Shown: positions 31,686 to 39,462, numbered from the stretch's first letter. The stretch: 40,022 bases of DNA from a bacterium (GCA_037127795.1 JBAXXQ010000001.1:210252-250273); one strand, 5' to 3'. The notes: generated by a model not told the origin, from the letters alone. Program-made: numbers and translations.

Positions 31686-31988
31686 ATGAAAAAACGTACT
31701 CTGATAGGAGCATTTTTTGTAGCAATACTACTGGTTTTATTACCAGTCGGGGCTTTTGCAAAGACCTCTGCAACTAAAAAAGTGGCAGTAAAAAACACTG
31801 TACAAAACAAAAAAACTGTTGCAAAAACAAAAACAGCAACTAAAAAAACTGCAACAAAATCTACTAAAAAAACAACAAAAAAGACCACAAAGAAGGGTAA
31901 GAAGAAAAAAGTTGCAAAACATAAGGATAAAATAAACACCACTATTGCACCACTGATAGATCCTAGTAATCCACCTGGTGGACAGTAG
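31686..31988 (+). CDS. Secreted Lys/Thr-rich low-complexity protein
   Basis: Signal peptide ending AFA, then KK repeats, then IDPSNPPGGQ. Confidence 0.7.
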   Translation: MKKRTLIGAFFVAILLVLLPVGAFAKTSATKKVAVKNTVQNKKTVAKTKTATKKTATKSTKKTTKKTTKKGKKKKVAKHKDKINTTIAPLIDPSNPPGGQ

Positions 31989-32092: not shown

Positions 32093-32167
32093 TCCCCTGT
32101 AGCTCAACGGTAGAGCAAAGAGCTGTTAACTCTGAGGTTATTGGTTCGAATCCAGTCGGGGGAGCCA
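32093..32167 (+). tRNA. tRNA-Asn(GTT)
   Basis: Acceptor stem tcccctg/cggggga, anticodon loop ctGTTaa, T loop ttcgaat, G73 plus CCA. Confidence 0.95.
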
Positions 32168-33718
32168 GATAGGATGAACATCAGCGAAAGCTGGTGTTTT
32201 TCCTTTTTTAGTAAGGGTTTTTCGTGGTTCGAAAATCTTTTGAGCGTCAATCTTCTCTTGAACACGCTTTGCAAGGACTTCCACTGGTTTCTTCAACAGT
32301 GGTAACACTTTTTCGTCTTTAAGAGTGAGGTTCGAAAAAATATGAGATAAAAGTAAGCGTCGCTCCTCTGGTGTACGCTTTTCGTAGATTTCTTTTGCAC
32401 GATATGCGAGGTCAAGAATGTTAAGCCAGATTTCAAAGTACTGGGTCTCTACATTTTTTATACGCGAGATTTGTTCCTGTATTTCTGCTTGCTCCTTGTT
32501 TATTTCGGACTGTTTTTTCTCCCAAATATCAGTTCCTATTTTCTGGTCTAACCTATCGTTGTATAGAACGTCCAAACGGCTCTGTAATTGCGTATAGCGA
32601 GCATTGAGAGACTTGAGTGCAGTCTCTTTGTATTCTGTTTCCTGTGCGTGGTTCTCTTTGATTTTTGCTTTAATCGCTTCTGCCTCTTGTGGTGTTATGT
32701 TCTTAAAGAACTCAAAGACACCAAAAAGCTGTTCTTCGATTTCATTCTCTGGGGTGTATGGCTTTTGGGTGCAATCGTTGTAGTGACTGCAATGATAATA
32801 CACAATACCTTTCTGTAACTCGGCAGTTATCGTACCTTTACATTCACCACATTTCATCATCTTCTTGAACTGAAAACTGTGTTTACTATACGCAGGTGCC
32901 AGATGTCCGCGTCGAACGCTTTGCGCTTTGTCAAAGAGTTCTTTGGTGATTATTGGTTCATGCTTGCCGACAGAAAGAACATCCTTCCACTTCATAGCTC
33001 CGTAATAAAACGGCTCGTTCAGCATATTTTCAATTGCACTTTTTGCTGGCTTAAATCCTGCGCGCGTACGAAAGCCCTGCTTATAGATTTCTTGTCGTAC
33101 CGCTTCCATTGAGTGGTTACCGCTCGCGTACATTTCAAAAGCTGTCTTTATGAAAGGTGCAACGTCGCTGTCAATGACATGGATTTTATGCCCCTTATCT
33201 CCAATCGTTTTGTAACCAAGCGGAGGTTTCGTAGGAAGCCAACCTTGTGCAATCTTTTCTGCTTGCCCTTTACGGACTTCTTCAGAAAGATTGGCAAGAT
33301 ACTTTTTAGCAAGAACTATCTCAATATCCCAGCGAAACTTCTCATCCGAGTTTGCGTATTTATGAAGTAGGAGATTTTGTTTAACAAAATGTATTTTGCG
33401 TTCTTTGTCAGTATCTATCCAGTCGTTGGCAAAAACAGCTTCTTTGAGATTGCGTGTGAGACGGTCAACCTTTTCAACAATAAGATTTTTGATGTCGTGC
33501 TTTTCAATAAAAGCCATCATTTCAGCAAAGACCTTTCGTTGCTTTGCTCCACTTGCACTTTCTGCAACAGAAAATACTTTTACGATTTTGAAGTCTTTGC
33601 GGTTTGAATACTCTTTAAGCAACTTCTCTTGAGAAGGTAGAGAGTATCCTGTTTCTTCTTGTTCTTTTGAAGAAACTCGGCAATATATCACACTTGTTGT
33701 TATGTCAGCATTTTTCAT
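32138..33718 (-). CDS. Large serine recombinase (resolvase, recombinase, Zn ribbon, coiled coil)
   Basis: YCRVSS, DRLTRN, PPLGY, HEPII, CGEC...YYHC...C; ends antisense inside the tRNA (WLPRLDSNQ). Confidence 0.93.
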   Translation of the reverse strand: MKNADITTSVIYCRVSSKEQEETGYSLPSQEKLLKEYSNRKDFKIVKVFSVAESASGAKQRKVFAEMMAFIEKHDIKNLIVEKVDRLTRNLKEAVFANDWIDTDKERKIHFVKQNLLLHKYANSDEKFRWDIEIVLAKKYLANLSEEVRKGQAEKIAQGWLPTKPPLGYKTIGDKGHKIHVIDSDVAPFIKTAFEMYASGNHSMEAVRQEIYKQGFRTRAGFKPAKSAIENMLNEPFYYGAMKWKDVLSVGKHEPIITKELFDKAQSVRRGHLAPAYSKHSFQFKKMMKCGECKGTITAELQKGIVYYHCSHYNDCTQKPYTPENEIEEQLFGVFEFFKNITPQEAEAIKAKIKENHAQETEYKETALKSLNARYTQLQSRLDVLYNDRLDQKIGTDIWEKKQSEINKEQAEIQEQISRIKNVETQYFEIWLNILDLAYRAKEIYEKRTPEERRLLLSHIFSNLTLKDEKVLPLLKKPVEVLAKRVQEKIDAQKIFEPRKTLTKKGKTPAFADVHPIWLPRLDSNQ

Positions 33719-33795
33719 ATTGCTATTTTAGCATTTTTAACATCTATTTATAAATCTATTTTTTAATTCTATATAGTGGGACATTATGTCTCGTA

Positions 33796-34206
33796 TTATG
33801 GGTCGCAATTGTCCCATTGTTCAGTCTTATTTGTCCCACTGTCACGTTTCGTAGACTTTGCGTGCACGCTATGGGACAATTTGTCCCATTGAATGTCTTT
33901 CCAATCGTCCAAAAAATAATACTTGTAACCTGCCCATTTTCCGTTATGTCGATATTTTTGTTTACGGATAAGTCCAAAATCTTCGAGTATGTGTATGTTT
34001 CTTTGTACACTTTTTCGAGTAATACCTAACAACTCTGCAATTTTTTCATGAGATGGAAATACTTCATCTGTAAAATCATTGCTATATCTCCTTAAAACAA
34101 CGAACATAGAAAAAACCAACGGGTGCAAATGCTTTGCCACGTTATCAACTATGCTTCTATCGAGCTTAAACCAGCCCTTATCGTTTTTATTTTTCAGCTC
34201 ATTCAT
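33796..34206 (-). CDS. HTH protein resembling a phage replication initiator N-terminus
   Basis: GWFKLDR, FPSHEKIAELLGITRKSVQRNIHILEDFGLI. Confidence 0.7.
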   Translation of the reverse strand: MNELKNKNDKGWFKLDRSIVDNVAKHLHPLVFSMFVVLRRYSNDFTDEVFPSHEKIAELLGITRKSVQRNIHILEDFGLIRKQKYRHNGKWAGYKYYFLDDWKDIQWDKLSHSVHAKSTKRDSGTNKTEQWDNCDP

Positions 34207-34221
34207 ACAGCTCTTTTTAAT

Positions 34222-34395
34222 TTATAAATCAGCACCCAACTCCACCCCGTTAGGAGCTGAAACTAACGGAGTAGAGTTGGTTTCCGATTTAAGTTTTTTC
34301 TGGTCTTCAAAATCAAACTTGGCAAGCAAGTCGAAAAACCCAGCCAAGCCAGTTATTACTTCTGTATTTATGTTTTCTTGAGTAGGGTTATTCAT
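34222..34395 (-). CDS. Small hypothetical protein (57 aa)
   Basis: MNNPTQ...LAGFFDLLAKFDFED; ATG just after the leader terminator. Confidence 0.55.
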   Translation of the reverse strand: MNNPTQENINTEVITGLAGFFDLLAKFDFEDQKKLKSETNSTPLVSAPNGVELGADL

Positions 34396-34406
34396 TGAGA
34401 CAAACG

Positions 34407-34712
34407 AAAAAAGCGACCCCAATAGGGTCGCTTTTAAGTTTTGTACTTGAGTAAACACCAAACAAATAAATCGCCCCATTGGCATTGCTACAACAATGTC
34501 GTAGCACTAACGCGATTATCACGTTAGAAGATTTATTTGTTCATGCACTTACTTAAATACACAACTGTATTTTTCAGCTCATCAAGCCAGCTCGAATGCG
34601 TCCGTCGCCGCCTACTTGGTCATCTTGTGGGTGAAGATTTTTTTGAAAAGAGCGATTTTTACTAAACCTCTCTTCACTTTCGGCAAATGACACGCCGAGT
34701 ACTTTTTTGTAC
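34407..34712 (-). ncRNA. Putative structured leader RNA ending in a terminator
   Basis: Promoter at 34719-34746 (minus); long stems whose A-C mismatches on plus are G-U pairs on minus. Confidence 0.55.
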
Positions 34713-34775
34713 TCATATATTATATCACACTTCAACTTCATTTCAAAAGAAGTAAGTTTTTGTTATAATGACTTT

Positions 34776-34970
34776 GCTGACATAACCAATAGGATACCGA
34801 AAGACTTTGCCCAAGGTCTTTTACTGCTGATTGCGTGTAGAATGCGCGTTCTCATTGAGGAAACACAATCAGCGGCTCTCGGGCTTGTTGGTTATGTCAG
34901 CACCTCTTTGGGGGCGCGCATTTTACGTTCCACTCATGGGGTTTTATTAACTAACCAATAGACCCTATGA
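34776..34970 (+). ncRNA. Putative structured leader RNA with pseudoknot or alternative pairing
   Basis: TGtTATAAT at 34761-34769; 18-bp closing stem 34776-34793/34884-34901. Confidence 0.55.
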
Positions 34971-35140
34971 AGAAGATACTAATTAAAGTTAAAGATTTTT
35001 TATATAAAGAAAGAGGTGATATTTTTAAGCTTGTTTTACTTATTTTAGTGGTAGCGGTTATATTTTTTATTCTCCAAGTTAAACCATGCAATCCTGAATA
35101 CGACGATTGCGCACCTCGCTGTTTAAAGGGTGGTTGTTAA
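34967..35140 (+). CDS. 57-aa single-TM peptide with 4-Cys tail (absent from the ORF track)
   Basis: MKKILIKVKDFLYKERGDIFKLVLLILVVAVIFFILQVKPCNPEYDDCAPRCLKGGC. Confidence 0.6.
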   Translation: MKKILIKVKDFLYKERGDIFKLVLLILVVAVIFFILQVKPCNPEYDDCAPRCLKGGC

Positions 35141-35154
35141 GTGTCATTTTTTCC

Positions 35155-35511
35155 CTATCTTTCGCTTTGTTTCGCTAAATCAGCAAGGACTTGCCCCATA
35201 GTCATTTGGGGCTCTTCGTCTTTCTCACGCTTGAGTATTTTAAGAGCAGTATAGACAGTCCTGCGGTCTGCTGCGCCTGCTGCCGTCGGTTGCATTGCCG
35301 ACTTGATAAGAGCAGCGTTTATCTTGGGCAGGAAAGCCCCTACCTGCTGCAAGAAGCCGCTTTGCAGCAGTTCTTCACGTATGAGCTCCTTCTGCACTTC
35401 CTCGATGATTTTACGCTTTGAACGGTATGTTTTGGGACGAGAAAGATTGCCTTTCACAGAGGCTTTGCGTGCGAGGTCTCTATCTTGGAATGTGTAGGTC
35501 TTATCACTCAT
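35155..35511 (-). CDS. Hypothetical protein, possibly terminase small subunit-like
   Basis: Basic N-terminus and helical INAALIKSAM..GAADRRTVY; ATGA overlap with the upstream gene. Confidence 0.45.
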   Translation of the reverse strand: MSDKTYTFQDRDLARKASVKGNLSRPKTYRSKRKIIEEVQKELIREELLQSGFLQQVGAFLPKINAALIKSAMQPTAAGAADRRTVYTALKILKREKDEEPQMTMGQVLADLAKQSER

Positions 35512-36779
35512 AATGTTTTCATTATTGCAATGACTTGTAGATTTTCTGCCAATGCTTTTTTAACTTCCGCTTCAGAAGCATCTTTGCCTTTATGAATAAC
35601 TTTGTTTCTGGTTTCTTTATAAGAAGAACACCAGTTAGTCCATAAGGGCTGGTCTTTATTTTCGAGGGTAAATCCAGTGGCTTCCCGTAATACCTCTTTA
35701 AGTCGAGTTTTTGTTTTCCAATTATCACCTGTAGCTATAAAATCTATTGCTTCTTGTTCGGTAAGACCCTTATTTTTTTGCAGCTTATCGACAAGAAAGT
35801 TTTCAATAAAAATCTCAAGACCTTGATACGACTGGACGACAGCGAGTGCGTAGTCCTTGTTGTTATAAGAGTTTTCAGCATCGAGTAAAAGCAAATTACA
35901 GAGGTCTGGTTTTTGACCCTCTTCAAGCATTTTTTCTATTGCCTCAATTTCAAACTTTGAACGGTTTATTGTAGCTGTTTCTACGTTCATTGGAAGAACA
36001 TATAAGCCCTGATTTAATTTGGTGAAATAAATCATATTTATACTCAAAGTACCTAACCTTGTTATATATTCTTGCTTGGTGGTAAACCGATAGGTGTCAA
36101 TGAGTTTGTTCACCGCATCAAGAGCTTTTTCTTTTACGGCATTTAGAACTTTTTCTGTCCGCTCCTTGTCTTTAAGGTCTTCTTCCTTTACTTCCATATT
36201 GAATTGAATGTAAAGACGAGTAAACCGAAATACTCCGTTTGTATCTTTAATCTTTTGAAGGTTAGTGCCCGTATAGTTTTGTTCCCAGCCGTCACGAGGG
36301 TCTACAGGCATTTGAGGGGTAAGAAAAACACTATCTTTTAAATAAGTAAGTCTATCATCTGCGTAAAAGTCAGCCTCATCAGAGACCTTTCCGTCTGTGG
36401 TAGCTTTTTTTGTCCAAATCTTTTTAGGTGTCAAAAGAGCTGCATCATTGGGCGCTGTTAGCAACACTTCGAGTTCGTAATCATTAGGTATGTGGAGACA
36501 ATAAGGTAAATGTGCTTCTACAAAAACATTACCGTAGTCAAAGTCTTTCATTGCGTCTTCGTTGTCATAACTGAAAAAAGGCTGAATGATAGTAATGCCA
36601 TTTCCCATGTTAGGAGAAGTTTTTTTAATTTCTTCAAGTAAAATGGCTTTTACTTCCTCTTCACCCAACTCCTTAAAACTCTCATCTATTATGCCGTTGA
36701 AGTTTATGAACTCACCAGTTAAACCTGATTTTGCCTGCATATTAACGTGGGCTGTTTTTCGCTTGTGTGGGTCTGCCAT
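35508..36779 (-). CDS. Protein with C-terminal HEPN domain
   Basis: LAVVQSYQGLEIFIE helix and RNKVIH (Rx4H). Confidence 0.7.
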   Translation of the reverse strand: MADPHKRKTAHVNMQAKSGLTGEFINFNGIIDESFKELGEEEVKAILLEEIKKTSPNMGNGITIIQPFFSYDNEDAMKDFDYGNVFVEAHLPYCLHIPNDYELEVLLTAPNDAALLTPKKIWTKKATTDGKVSDEADFYADDRLTYLKDSVFLTPQMPVDPRDGWEQNYTGTNLQKIKDTNGVFRFTRLYIQFNMEVKEEDLKDKERTEKVLNAVKEKALDAVNKLIDTYRFTTKQEYITRLGTLSINMIYFTKLNQGLYVLPMNVETATINRSKFEIEAIEKMLEEGQKPDLCNLLLLDAENSYNNKDYALAVVQSYQGLEIFIENFLVDKLQKNKGLTEQEAIDFIATGDNWKTKTRLKEVLREATGFTLENKDQPLWTNWCSSYKETRNKVIHKGKDASEAEVKKALAENLQVIAIMKTL

Positions 36780-36841
36780 AATCTTTACATTATACCATTT
36801 TTGGGCTTAATTTTTAAGTCAAAAAATGCTAAAATCCTAAA

Positions 36842-37861
36842 ATGAATAACCCCGCGAAAGATTTATTTGATACAGTAATCAAACAAGGCATAGTATACGT
36901 TGATGACCTTGTGGCTAACAAGGTTTCGGAAAACTACTACCTTGACTTTAAGCTCACCGAAAATGAAGATTACACTGGAAAAAGAAATCTTTTTGACTCA
37001 GACAAAAAGAACTACGGGAAATGTATATCAGCTTTCGGTAATAGCGAAGGAGGGGTTATTATTTGGGGTATAGAAACAGGTGCGAGTGATACTGACTATG
37101 CTATCGGAAAAAAGGCGATAAAAAATGTCTCTAACTTTTGTAGTTTACTTGAAAGTTTTACTTCACTTCTTACGTCTCCTCCGCACCCAAACGTATCCAA
37201 CAAAATAATCTTTGAGGATGAGACAAATGATACTGGATATGTTGTAAGCTATATTCCAAAATCAAACAGACGACCATTTCAAGTATTAAATAAAGATTTA
37301 AGATACTACATAAGAGCTGGTAGCAGTTCTCAACCTGCACCTGATACATTTTTGAGAGCACTCTTCGGACAAGAGCCTCAACCAAATGCGTTTATAGTTT
37401 ATGGTACTCCACCTATTGAAGTAGACCATGAAAATACTATCAAAATTAAACTTGGTATTATTATTCATAATAAAGGAGAAAATGTTGCTAAAAACCTAAA
37501 TGGATATGTATACGTCGGAGGTGAAAGTATGGCAATAGAAATAAGTCAGAGTACTCAAAATGATTTTGCCTTTAATAAAAACTCTATTTCAGGCATGAAA
37601 ATTGGTTTTGTCGCTAAACCTCATTTTATTCTTGGTATAGAGCAAGAAGTTTGTCCACTGACCATACACCTCGAACTTAAAAAAGAACTAACCGAGCACG
37701 GCATTTTAATTGAGACTTTGGTTAATTGTGATAATCAACAAACTTACAGATTTAGTAAAAGACTTGAAAAAGCACAGCTTCAAGATATTTACAAAAAATA
37801 TATTACAGACCAAAACTTTAATATAATAGAAGCAATTATTGGTAAAGGTGAAGAGGAATAA
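36842..37861 (+). CDS. Schlafen/AlbA_2 domain protein with beta-rich C-terminal domain
   Basis: SENYYLDFK, ISAFGNSEGGVIIWGI, YIPKS..RPF..YYIRAG. Confidence 0.8.
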   Translation: MNNPAKDLFDTVIKQGIVYVDDLVANKVSENYYLDFKLTENEDYTGKRNLFDSDKKNYGKCISAFGNSEGGVIIWGIETGASDTDYAIGKKAIKNVSNFCSLLESFTSLLTSPPHPNVSNKIIFEDETNDTGYVVSYIPKSNRRPFQVLNKDLRYYIRAGSSSQPAPDTFLRALFGQEPQPNAFIVYGTPPIEVDHENTIKIKLGIIIHNKGENVAKNLNGYVYVGGESMAIEISQSTQNDFAFNKNSISGMKIGFVAKPHFILGIEQEVCPLTIHLELKKELTEHGILIETLVNCDNQQTYRFSKRLEKAQLQDIYKKYITDQNFNIIEAIIGKGEEE

Positions 37862-37869
37862 AAGTATCT

Positions 37870-38625
37870 ATGACAACTCAATTTGTAAAATCACTATCAG
37901 TCATAGATAAATACGCAAAAGAATTAAAGCCCCCAGAAGTAAGAGAGCTCAATCTTGTAAATCTTACACTTAATGAAATTAGAGTTTATTTAGGTTTTTT
38001 GGATATTATTTTTGATAGATATCTTGAAACTGGAATTGAGTGGCAAAAAGTAAGCAAAGAACTCCAAACTTCTCTACAAGGGAAAGAAGGAACAATGTCT
38101 GATGAGCAAATGACACTGTTTAATAGAAGTGGTGAATTGAGCAGTCGAATGCGCCTTGAAATAGAAAGCTTCTTTTTGTTTTGCCATATATTCCTAAATA
38201 AAATGACTAACTATCCTCAAATGTACTTCTCTCATAATTACAAAAGAGGTATAACATGTGGCTCTCACCATAAGTTTTGGAACTCGGTAAACAACAAGCA
38301 TTATTTTGACCCTATTAACGAAGAATTAAAAGAAAAAGCAGAGTGGCTTCAAGAAAAAGTTATTGGTCACAGAGACCACTTGATAACGCATACTCTTGAA
38401 AAAGAGCAGGACGCAAGAATGCTCATAAAAGGACTTTCTTTCTACCAAGAAGGAAAAGGGTTCAGTACAATGTCTACAACTCTTTATCCTGATGAAAAAG
38501 TAAATGGTCAGACAAATAGCGTACCTATTGAAGAAATCATCCCAAACATTGAAAGATACACTGAACTTTTCTTTGAGTTTTTGGAGCAAAATAAAGACAA
38601 GTCAATTTTCGCCCAAGAAACATGA
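37870..38625 (+). CDS. Predicted HEPN (Cthe_2314-like) protein
   Basis: IESFFLFCHIFLNKM helix and RDHLITH (Rx5H). Confidence 0.55.
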   Translation: MTTQFVKSLSVIDKYAKELKPPEVRELNLVNLTLNEIRVYLGFLDIIFDRYLETGIEWQKVSKELQTSLQGKEGTMSDEQMTLFNRSGELSSRMRLEIESFFLFCHIFLNKMTNYPQMYFSHNYKRGITCGSHHKFWNSVNNKHYFDPINEELKEKAEWLQEKVIGHRDHLITHTLEKEQDARMLIKGLSFYQEGKGFSTMSTTLYPDEKVNGQTNSVPIEEIIPNIERYTELFFEFLEQNKDKSIFAQET

Positions 38626-38731
38626 TATCACCCTAACTTACCAATGCTTTGATTTCGCCTAAACTTATAGTTGGATATGGGTACTCTGTTGCCCAATCTA
38701 TCGTTCGAAAATCGTCTGCCAGTGCGAGCAA

Positions 38732-38775
38732 AATGAAAAAAGTCTGCTATACAACATAGCGGGCTTTTTTCATTT
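38732..38775 (+). terminator. Terminator; probably the original tRNA-Asn terminator displaced by the island
   Basis: aatgaaaaaagtctgctat-acaac-atagcgggcttttttcatt, directly after the right GAGC core. Confidence 0.65.
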
Positions 38776-38877
38776 CTACTCTCTTGTCCTGATTCGAACC
38801 GCGGGCGATCAGTAGGTCGTGTCGGTGTATGTAAGGGCAGGGTTCGAAGATAAGTGCGAAAAATGATATAATTTACT

Positions 38878-39462
38878 ATGATGGAGGAATTTCCAAAACC
38901 TAGTTTAAATCTAGAAAAAAATCTTGAAGAAAAAGTAGTAAAGCAAGGTGTAGCAGAACTATTTGAATCTAATCCTGAATTAGCTACTATTGGAACGCAA
39001 GAACAATATTCAACATATCTTGATACGATATTTCCCGATAGTAATATAAAAGATATTGTTTATCACGGTGGTAGGGACGGCACAATAGAAAAATTTAGAA
39101 ATAATCATTTTGGTATATACCTTTCATATTCACCCATAAGGGGTGTTTTTGGGGATTGTATTTACAGAGTAATTGTAAATGCTAAAAATCCATTAATACG
39201 GCCAAAAGTAGATGCAACTATTGAAGAAAAAGTAGAATATAACAAAGAGGTGCGTGATTTTTATAGCACACATCTTTTTTCAGCTGACGAAACACCGGTA
39301 TATAAATATGATAGTGCTATAGAATCTTCAAGTACAACTAATGAAGGTGTTCAAATTAAAATTAGAAATCCTGAACAAATACACATTTTAGACTCTAAGG
39401 ATGATACTGTAAAATTTAAAGAATTTGTTTCCTCTAAAGAAGATCGTATAAAAAATAGTTAA
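38878..39462 (+). CDS. ADP-ribosyltransferase-like (ART-PolyVal-type) protein
   Basis: IVYHG..F...GIYLS...VIVNAKNPL...YDSAI...NPEQI. Confidence 0.55.
   Translation: MMEEFPKPSLNLEKNLEEKVVKQGVAELFESNPELATIGTQEQYSTYLDTIFPDSNIKDIVYHGGRDGTIEKFRNNHFGIYLSYSPIRGVFGDCIYRVIVNAKNPLIRPKVDATIEEKVEYNKEVRDFYSTHLFSADETPVYKYDSAIESSSTTNEGVQIKIRNPEQIHILDSKDDTVKFKEFVSSKEDRIKNS

Follow-up and report, generated by a model that had tools for sequence, protein, structure and literature searches.

A putative integrative element of Patescibacteria whose attachment site probably lies within its own large serine recombinase gene

Large serine integrases are the main tools for the one-way insertion of large DNA and, to our knowledge, the direction in which these large serine recombinases (LSRs) work is thought to be set only by the type of attachment (att) site and by a separate directionality factor. 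Here we describe a stretch of 40,022 nucleotides of bacterial DNA (GCA_037127795.1 JBAXXQ010000001.1:210252-250273; the window, with positions counted from its first letter) in which an LSR gene runs antisense into a tRNA-Asn gene and what appear to be its last 30 codons lie at the far end of a predicted island. The arrangement very probably reflects an attP site inside the recombinase reading frame, so that the free and inserted forms of the element would encode different C-termini.

The described systems in which attP lies inside a gene use tyrosine recombinases. The Myxococcus phage Mx8 targets a tRNA-Asp gene, and elements of the SSV1 (fusellovirus) type carry attP within the int gene and likewise target a tRNA gene. 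For IntP and IntX of Mx8 a review places attP inside the integrase coding sequence, and integration yields a recombined gene whose 3' end is new and whose properties are altered (PMC6070905). The island in the window is like Mx8 in that, by comparative inference, the crossover falls inside the integrase open reading frame (ORF) and integration creates a new 3' end; it is unlike Mx8, whose Int is a tyrosine recombinase with another chemistry and complex att sites, in having an LSR, a 4-bp core and an exchange of 30 residues for two to seven. It works like the Mx8 type and is not a member of it, its recombinase being a serine and not a tyrosine enzyme. A first-pass annotation of this DNA had drawn the parallel with SSV1, and it holds for the tRNA target and for an attP within the gene; Mx8 is nevertheless closer, since the SSV1-type gene, for an archaeal-virus tyrosine recombinase, splits into two large parts and here only the last 30 codons are exchanged. 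There is a further likeness to the integration-dependent immunity of mycobacteriophages, in which attP is reported to lie inside the repressor gene, with integration altering the protein's C-terminus and thereby a life-cycle decision (PMC3694055 and others). There, unlike here, it is a repressor that is split, a degradation tag is removed and the integrase is a tyrosine enzyme.

With the LSRs phiC31, Bxb1, A118/LI and SPbeta SprA the recombinase shares its domain set, and its att sites look short and simple, with minimal identity; in these canonical enzymes, by contrast, attP stands apart from the integrase gene and a separate directionality factor is required. A study by Abe from 2021, cited on C-terminal directionality in a preprint on SPbeta, is said, to judge from its title, to bear on the same matter. 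The extreme C-terminus of SprA has been implicated in directionality: the portion of that preprint concerned with its control reports that residue F532 of Int, near the C-terminus, matters, and this may serve as a precedent for a C-terminal role. According to the Islander paper (PMC4383910), no serine integrases were known to have tRNA genes as their targets, a statement that the tRNA-targeting described here would contradict. Unlike the classical tRNA islands of that work, this one has no tRNA fragment repeat at its far end. The concept of an attP within an integrase gene is already known for tyrosine integrases (Mx8, SSV1); in the open-access literature searched, supplements excluded, we found no serine integrase described with attP in its own gene or with tRNA targets, the architecture that is well supported below. 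The word tRNA is absent from the main text of Durrant 2022 (PMC10083194), whose supplements could hold such cases.

The recombinase gene and its detached 3' end

The host genome (682 kb in 5 contigs, 37% G+C) has close relatives that carry the names Nomurabacteria, Paceibacterota or Patescibacteria in public records. The features on which the argument turns are these:

32093-32167, plus strand: tRNA-Asn(GTT), called by ARAGORN (Rfam tRNA, 63.9 bits)
32138-33718, minus strand: large serine recombinase, short form, 526 residues
32138-32161, minus strand: tRNA-encoded replacement tail PRLDSNQ and stop, its D-S-N codons being the reverse complement of the T loop
32162-32165: crossover block GAGC at the tRNA-proximal junction, equal to tRNA positions 71-74
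32166-38729: predicted island between both junctions, 6,564 bp, delimited by junction comparison and in-silico excision
32176-32209, plus strand: terminator-like hairpin and T run in the tRNA sense, 9 nt past the tRNA and within the region of the recombinase coding sequence that encodes a linker
38633-38725, minus strand: detached last 30 recombinase codons and stop, by homology to contiguous tails
38726-38729: crossover block GAGC at the distal junction
38731-38775: chromosomal hairpin with a 20-bp stem and A and T runs (folding free energy, dG, -26.4 kcal/mol; z -8.96)

The recombinase is an LSR with resolvase and recombinase domains and a zinc ribbon with an inserted coiled coil. Pfam assigns Resolvase (PF00239, 1.9e-20, residues 10-159), Recombinase (PF07508, 7.6e-16) and Zn_ribbon_recom (PF13408, 7.3e-07), all of them serine-recombinase domains and none that of a tyrosine recombinase, and the PHROG integrase match stands at 4.8e-74. 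R14, S16 and other residues of the catalytic domain are invariant among 24 homologues, as are the zinc-ribbon cysteines C290, C293, C310 and C316. All recognised domains lie in the 519 of 549 codons that would remain together after integration.

The ORF from 33718 to 32138 ends in HPIWLPRLDSNQ and a stop. The first-pass annotation had it running antisense into tRNA-Asn with the ending HPIWL-PRLDSNQ, and this, like every coordinate and sequence statement made there, was verified on the window. Residues 1-519 are encoded by the element, and residues 520-526 and the stop are the tRNA acceptor and T arm read in antisense; the codon of W518 is the reverse complement of CCA and that of L519 is the complement of GAG at 32162-32164, so that the block GAGC reads, on the recombinase strand, as GCTC, the last base of W518 and the whole of codon L519. 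At the other end of the island, the minus strand from 38725 to 38633 encodes ALADDFRTIDWATEYPYPTISLGEIKALVS and a stop, beginning ALADDFRTIDW and ending KALVS. This distal peptide had been described as having no start of its own, which is right for the peptide at 38725-38633; a TTG at 38729-38731, composed of flank and core and lying inside a hairpin, can nonetheless be named as a possible start of the distal ORF and is so given by ORF listing. Joining the two ends in silico at GAGC produces a frame of 549 residues with no internal stop. In the reciprocal product ARAGORN still calls tRNA-Asn (73 nt, no encoded CCA), and the 20-bp-stem hairpin at 38731-38775 follows directly 3' of it, in agreement with the earlier expectation that excision would keep the tRNA and restore a terminator. 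A 4-bp match and 30 open codons are, taken alone, within the reach of chance, and the case therefore rests on comparison with homologues.

A protein search returned 2,226 relatives of the recombinase, the best 120 of which were examined and sorted by rule according to C-terminus. P0111 (548 residues) runs ...HPALL and then straight on into the contiguous tail ALADDFRTIDWVREYPFPTIALKEIRDLLIAT; P0065 (543 residues) runs ...LL and on into ALVDDFRTINWAHEYPYPSIELKQIKLLLS; and P0018 and P0084 have contiguous variants of this tail. The detached tail of the window is identical to the tails of both P0111 and P0065 at 21 of 30 residues. The fused form that the first-pass annotation had derived on paper is thus found as contiguous proteins. 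Most of the best 120 homologues (105) stop in, or read through, tRNA antisense sequence: 74 stop zero to three codons past the junction (LLRG-stop, LLPR-stop and the like) and 31 read on via D/G-S-N codons, which are the T loop in antisense. Four have the contiguous tail of class 1, D-x-F-R-T-x-x-W, five have a second class of contiguous tail (D-D-V-R or V-R-T) and six have other C-termini. Integration would replace the tail with seven foreign residues in the window and with two or three in most relatives.

The same arrangement was seen when we compared 7 genome, 80 metagenome and 25 viral-collection loci, of which 91 were unique and 74 of these had a complete 3' end. A tRNA on the opposite strand lies over the recombinase stop in 48 of the 74 (ARAGORN, introns allowed): tRNA-Asn accounts for 31 (4 of them intron-bearing), Gln for 5, Asp for 2 (1 intron-bearing), Leu, Ile, Val, Tyr and Ser for 1 each, and intron-type tRNAs of uncertain identity for the remaining 5. 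The 26 without a tRNA call consist of 8 viral-collection relatives (34-36% identity) with a different C-terminus, 8 with a contiguous tail, 6 that a contig end truncates or whose interrupted tRNA escaped the call, and 4 others. A profile hidden Markov model of the tail, iterated twice and run against all stop-to-stop ORFs of both strands (E<1e-3), found 35 matches, all on the recombinase strand and none on the opposite one. Isolated ORFs upstream of a recombinase start account for 27 of them, spread over 24 of the 91 unique loci (a lower bound, as some loci may hold too little upstream sequence to show a tail), and with these the conservation of the tail at distal island ends, for which the first-pass annotation had proposed a check, was borne out. 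The isolated tails lie 4.5-9.7 kb upstream of the recombinase (15-16 kb in L119), and most of their ORFs are 32-86 residues long.

The detached tails also carry a mark of selection. Nei-Gojobori counts over 8 isolated tails (28 pairs) give proportions of synonymous (pS) and non-synonymous (pN) difference of 0.74 and 0.13 for tail codons 3-11 and of 0.80 and 0.30 for codons 12-31; between the window and L003, codons 12-31 show 9 synonymous changes and 1 non-synonymous change. Judged by these counts, the detached tails are under protein-level purifying selection. Because DNA that has no start of its own keeps its amino acids, the tail would have to be translated regularly, and hence to be regularly re-joined to the gene. 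Of the indirect evidence that excision recurs and that the long form has a function, we regard this selection as the strongest.

An AlphaFold2 model of the full-length relative P0111, built on a 35-row alignment, has a mean predicted local distance difference test score (pLDDT) of 76 and consists of the catalytic domain, the recombinase domain, the zinc ribbon, coiled-coil helices (340-457) and a disordered linker (492-513), with the tail as three short helices (pLDDT 52-61). Foldseek searches with this model match full-length LSR-DNA chains solved by cryo-electron microscopy (cryo-EM), namely 9y66, 9dxd, Bxb1 9iu2 and phiC31 9rah (E 1e-20 to 1e-15); at the level of sequence, likeness to solved LSR structures is confined to the catalytic domain. 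Complex prediction with body residues 1-490 and the tail alignment scored 0.00, 0.40 and 0.00 and is counted neither for nor against binding. An ssrA-like degradation tag was considered for the detached tail, whose end ...KALVS shows no convincing likeness to the tag ...APAFA of the host's transfer-messenger RNA (tmRNA). Among distant relatives of the recombinase in IMG/VR (L128, L131, L132, L135 and L137; 34-36% identity) there is no tRNA end, and these proteins finish in ...ALDLAA, ...SFDFAA or ...IFKNAV, which we take to resemble degradation tags of the ssrA type.

The site of exchange and the tRNA genes

The tRNA-Asn(GTT) gene at 32093-32167 is the only tRNA-Asn gene that ARAGORN calls in the genome. 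It is chromosomal up to C74, and C75-A76 (32166-32167) derive from the island, which thus completes the encoded CCA as had been read from the sequence at the outset. A search for direct repeats at the two ends of the island gave nothing beyond the 4-bp core, and the distal end holds no tRNA-Asn 3' repeat of the kind that marks an Islander-type displaced fragment, only GAGC being common to both ends. With the tRNA cut at positions 71-74, almost nothing of it needs restoring.

The position of the exchange can be narrowed by comparison. In the window, L002 and L003, one junction leads from the recombinase body into the tRNA and the other from the flank into the tail. The block common to both junctions is, on the recombinase strand, GCTC in the window and L003 and TGGCTC in L002, the frame is always kept, and this identity of 4 or 6 bp is compatible with short LSR att sites. 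Other isolated tails are preceded by TT-, TG-, GG- or AA-GCTC, and since the bases before GCTC vary, the exchange would take place inside it, that is, inside GAGC at tRNA positions 71-74. The three independent elements, which share the block, agree with the junction proposed in the first-pass annotation, and unoccupied sites agree with it as well. Eighteen tRNA-Asn genes were called in the genus; an LSR gene runs into 3 of them (that of the window, L017 and L023) and 12 loci are unoccupied, with at least 1.4 kb downstream that holds no LSR. The unoccupied genes end in ...GGGGGAGC, and in 10 of the 12 GAGC is followed by A, usually with a hairpin next, as in the empty site predicted for the window; the 20 nt past GAGC are otherwise mutually unlike. 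The protein of the window's right flank (38878-39462) has partial relatives in 5 of the 60 relatives searched, none of them beside tRNA-Asn. No empty site with the window's own flanks was found in that search, and the comparison consequently rests on the other tRNA-Asn loci of the genus.

In L051, L060, L106 and L119, two or three recombinase genes with one common orientation form a head-to-tail array. Every upstream copy continues in frame into the tail of the neighbouring element and, in L106 and L119, the last copy is fused to tRNA-Asn. Two or three tail relics are found within one locus in L060, L099 and L119. The arrays suggest that occupied sites may be re-used in building them and, taken with the unlike flanks of the empty sites, that the tRNA half-site may suffice as a target. 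L005, L067, L099 and L124 are also among the loci listed with head-to-tail arrays. Closely related recombinases (74-89% identity) stand at other loci and in other genomes, and of 50 other genomes of the genus 31 have relatives at E<=1e-20; the most in any one is 7 matches, in a genome of 0.7 Mb, which is many for so small a genome.

Downstream of the tRNA, the hairpin at 32176-32209 (dG -20.6, z -4.4) is also picked up by a terminator scan. Across 36 related loci the 60 nt 3' of the tRNA fold with a mean of -17.3 kcal/mol, against -7.0 kcal/mol for a control segment (Wilcoxon 9e-11), and the same 60 nt encode the variable K-R-Q-K-D-S-F-E-S-L linker of the recombinase. The element thus seems to bring a replacement terminator for the tRNA, encoded within the linker region of its recombinase gene. 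The chromosomal hairpin at 38731-38775 is absent from the listing of the strict terminator scan. Weak Rfam matches, one of them to Thr_leader at 38711-38773 (31.8 bits, where 55 are required) and others in the same region, fall below the gathering scores, and we read them as the flank hairpin or as chance.

The heptamer GTTCGAA starts at 32144 and at 38703, 18 nt and 23 nt before the respective cores. In the part of the published zinc-domain model that concerns the att sites, the motif of attB is 5 bp closer to the centre than that of attP (bp 11-19 against 16-24; Rutherford 2013, PMC3783163), and the passage on this shift in a cryo-EM preprint on SPbeta integrase puts it at 4 bp. By our own count, with the centre placed inside GAGC, GTTCGAA falls roughly at positions 14-20 in the tRNA arm and at 19-25 in the element arm, an offset that is consistent with the published model. 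The spacing noted in the first-pass annotation accordingly fits; of 32 tails, however, only 11 have an exact TCGAAC (16 have CGAAC), and the motif falls on the conserved F-R-T codons. The related GGTTCGAA has 5 copies in the window (32143-32150, 32226-32233, 32329-32336, 38793-38800 on the minus strand, and 38841-38848; also 38703-38709), all within about 200 nt of the two island junctions, where 0.82 would be expected and none of 100 shuffles reaches 5. Two of the copies are the recombinase protein motifs F-S-N and F-E-P, and these are conserved at the level of nucleotides across related genes: the Ser of F-S-N is TCG in 12 of 13 motifs, against 10% of Ser codons elsewhere in the genes, and the Phe of F-E is TTC in 14 of 14, against 34% elsewhere. 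The heptamer TTCGAAC is read in all three frames, as F-E-P, F-R-T and x-S-N. In the right flank, at 38780-38860, there are two more T-loop-like motifs, and the minus strand of that flank has a weak likeness to the S-H-I-F-S-N-L motif of the recombinase (about residues 453-468; 16 residues, 50% identity), which at E 2.5 is not significant and may be the relic of an older element.

Interrupted tRNA-Asn genes were seen in many relatives, with halves about 600 nt apart at G013:C10:20040-20666, G062:C13:13144-13809 and G009:C29:29498-30151. At L048, L049, L053, L062, L070, L071, L095 and L118 the tRNA sequence breaks off beside the anticodon, and these genes are missed by plain ARAGORN.

The proposed cycle and competing explanations

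What has been shown is the anatomy of the locus together with its recurrence in many elements, the preservation of frame at the junctions, the tail under selection and, in relatives, the form of the empty site. These observations are, with high probability, best accounted for if 32166-38729 is an integrative element of a Patescibacteria (candidate phyla radiation, CPR) genome, moved by an LSR whose reading frame contains attP, so that free and inserted forms encode different C-termini. Contiguous relatives, recurrent tails, the junctions and the unoccupied sites all support the proposal of the first-pass annotation that the gene is split by its own att site. In the free circle the gene would be whole and would encode the enzyme of 549 residues, with the tail A-L-x-D-D-F-R-T-I-D-W ... 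E-Y-P-Y-P ... borne on a linker that is disordered in the model. Strand exchange would occur inside GAGC, a block that corresponds to positions 71-74 of tRNA-Asn in the chromosome and, in the element, falls at codon L519 with 30 codons remaining to the stop. Integration would sever the tail and fuse the body to tRNA antisense sequence, leaving the tRNA intact with C75-A76 and a replacement terminator hairpin supplied by the element. The long form would be the integration-proficient enzyme, because only the long form exists when attP exists, and the short form would be the product of the integrated element. Since selection keeps the tail, the long form presumably does something that the short form cannot, most simply integration; and the persistence of the tail over time implies that the short form should still allow excision, probably with a helper from the conserved small genes upstream (the 87-residue ORF and the helix-turn-helix, HTH, protein listed below). 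We infer that this copy still excises. Rearrangement of the gene could in this way act as a latch on the activity or the direction of the recombinase; alternatively, the tail may affect the stability of the enzyme. Recognition of the target would be mainly by the tRNA half-site, because the flank half of unoccupied sites is unconserved and occupied sites appear to be re-used.

Several observations weigh against this explanation. All four proteins with a class-1 tail come from short Logan contigs, and those chromosomal long forms that could be inspected sit in arrays, so that contiguity in databases is no proof of free circles. No terminal direct repeat of 20-299 nt, as expected of a circular contig, was present among the loci tested. 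The selection counts come from related sequences, their pairs are not independent, and the tail Arg is biased to CGA (57% against a background of 17%), which leaves room for some constraint at the level of DNA. In the P0111 model the structure of the tail is of low confidence (pLDDT 52-61). The first-pass annotation had suggested looking for the circle junction and the empty site in reads, and in Logan contigs of four DNA runs from two studies, with one run possibly the source of the window, the integrated tRNA-recombinase junction is present in all four, with no circle and no empty site, which is weak evidence as such contigs drop rare variants. In these contigs 38729 is never joined back to 32166, nor is the stretch between 32165 and 38730 ever skipped; the joints that do occur (33396/33627, 33763/37903 and 36034/33744) have short sides and lie at other places.

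That only the integrated form appears in the contigs of these four runs and two studies would equally be expected if the architecture were as described and this particular copy were fixed, its short recombinase a remnant or repurposed, and the absence of a recognisable directionality factor from the annotation of the island points the same way. We consider this possible and, on balance, doubtful: no ORF of the element is broken, and the detached tail too runs without an internal stop and is 21/30 identical to contiguous tails; recombinases of 74-89% identity are found at other loci and in other genomes; and rare excision products would be invisible in contigs. It is improbable that the attP within the gene, though real, is functionally neutral, the tail doing nothing as a protein and being conserved for the DNA needs of the P' half-site with its T-loop-like zinc-domain motif. 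The 18- and 23-nt spacings of GTTCGAA, which match the shift of 5 bp in PMC3783163, would suit that idea, as would the codons used for the Arg of F-R-T in 28 tails, 16 of which have CGA as against 17% of Arg codons elsewhere in the genes (one more has CGT). The other 11 tails, however, keep Arg with AGA and so break the DNA motif, whose exact form TCGAAC is retained in only 11 of 32, and synonymous sites are near saturation with the amino acids kept, also at more than 27 nt from the core.

We think it very improbable indeed that the distal peptide is the leftover of a second, decayed recombinase from an old tandem element, with the true att site elsewhere. Tandem arrays and multiple tail relics do exist (in L051, L060, L099, L106 and L119), and the right flank has its two further copies of GGTTCGAA and its weak match to recombinase residues of about 453-468. 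Yet similarity to the tail begins, in all three of the window, L002 and L003, right at the shared block and in frame, with no recombinase body upstream; most isolated tails stand in the short ORFs described above; purifying selection on detached tails is unexpected for a decaying relic; and the predicted empty-site form matches the unoccupied sites of relatives.

The preferred explanation, an element with attP in its recombinase frame, can be taken further by joining the tail to the zinc-domain motif, in a form that we hold to be rather unlikely as a whole. The 30-residue tail would then be a built-in directionality switch, with the long form acting only on attP x attB and the short form only on attL x attR, so that recombination rewrites its own enzyme and replaces or gates a separate directionality factor; this would be coupled to a reading of tRNA T-loop DNA by the zinc domain and to nucleotide-level copies of TTCGAAC in the element's own 3' coding region. 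Were this joint reading true, there would be a large clade of serine integrases with natural landing sites in universally conserved tRNA genes. Even the simpler explanation would mean that, in a widespread family, integration edits the C-terminus of its own integrase, a new layer of control. Enzymes with a conserved tRNA end as target half-site would be attractive for engineering organisms that have no landing pads, and islands of this kind, frequently arranged in tandem, seem to provide a major path for gene flux in the 0.5-0.9 Mb genomes of the CPR.

Other genes of the island and its surroundings

The remaining genes of the island are these:

33796-34206, minus strand: 136-residue HTH_36 protein (Pfam 4.5e-10; PHROG replication initiation 9.4e-15)
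34222-34485, minus strand: 87-residue ORF just upstream of the HTH gene, with no Pfam, PHROG or PADLOC match
35155-38625: variable cargo of four ORFs, as follows
35155-35511, minus strand: 118-residue ORF, present also in L007
35508-36779, minus strand: 423-residue protein with a weak HEPN_Apea-like C-terminus (Pfam)
36842-37861, plus strand: 339-residue Schlafen AlbA_2 protein (Pfam)
37870-38625, plus strand: 251-residue ORF with no family match

The HTH_36 protein resembles the winged-helix N-terminus of phage replication initiators and has homologues at the same place in 8 loci. The 87-residue ORF has tblastn matches in 14 related loci, all of them just upstream of the recombinase, and is a candidate regulator or directionality factor; no directionality factor was recognisable in the Pfam, PADLOC or PHROG annotation of the island. 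Apart from the 118-residue ORF, the cargo was not found in the other loci compared, and its annotation for defence by PADLOC gave only weak matches of the CARF/HEPN type.

A related island at L007 1181-4716 has a different cargo, with ORFs of 598 and 578 residues, and its recombinase is without the N-terminal third. Judged by eye from the translations only, the two ORFs resemble an OLD/AAA-type ATPase and a helicase like UvrD, which would make a Gabija-like pair. Just upstream of the tRNA in the window and outside the island, 31686-31988 holds an ORF of 100 residues with a very high content of Lys and Thr, short repeats of the K-K-T-(A/T) type and an N-terminus that resembles a signal.

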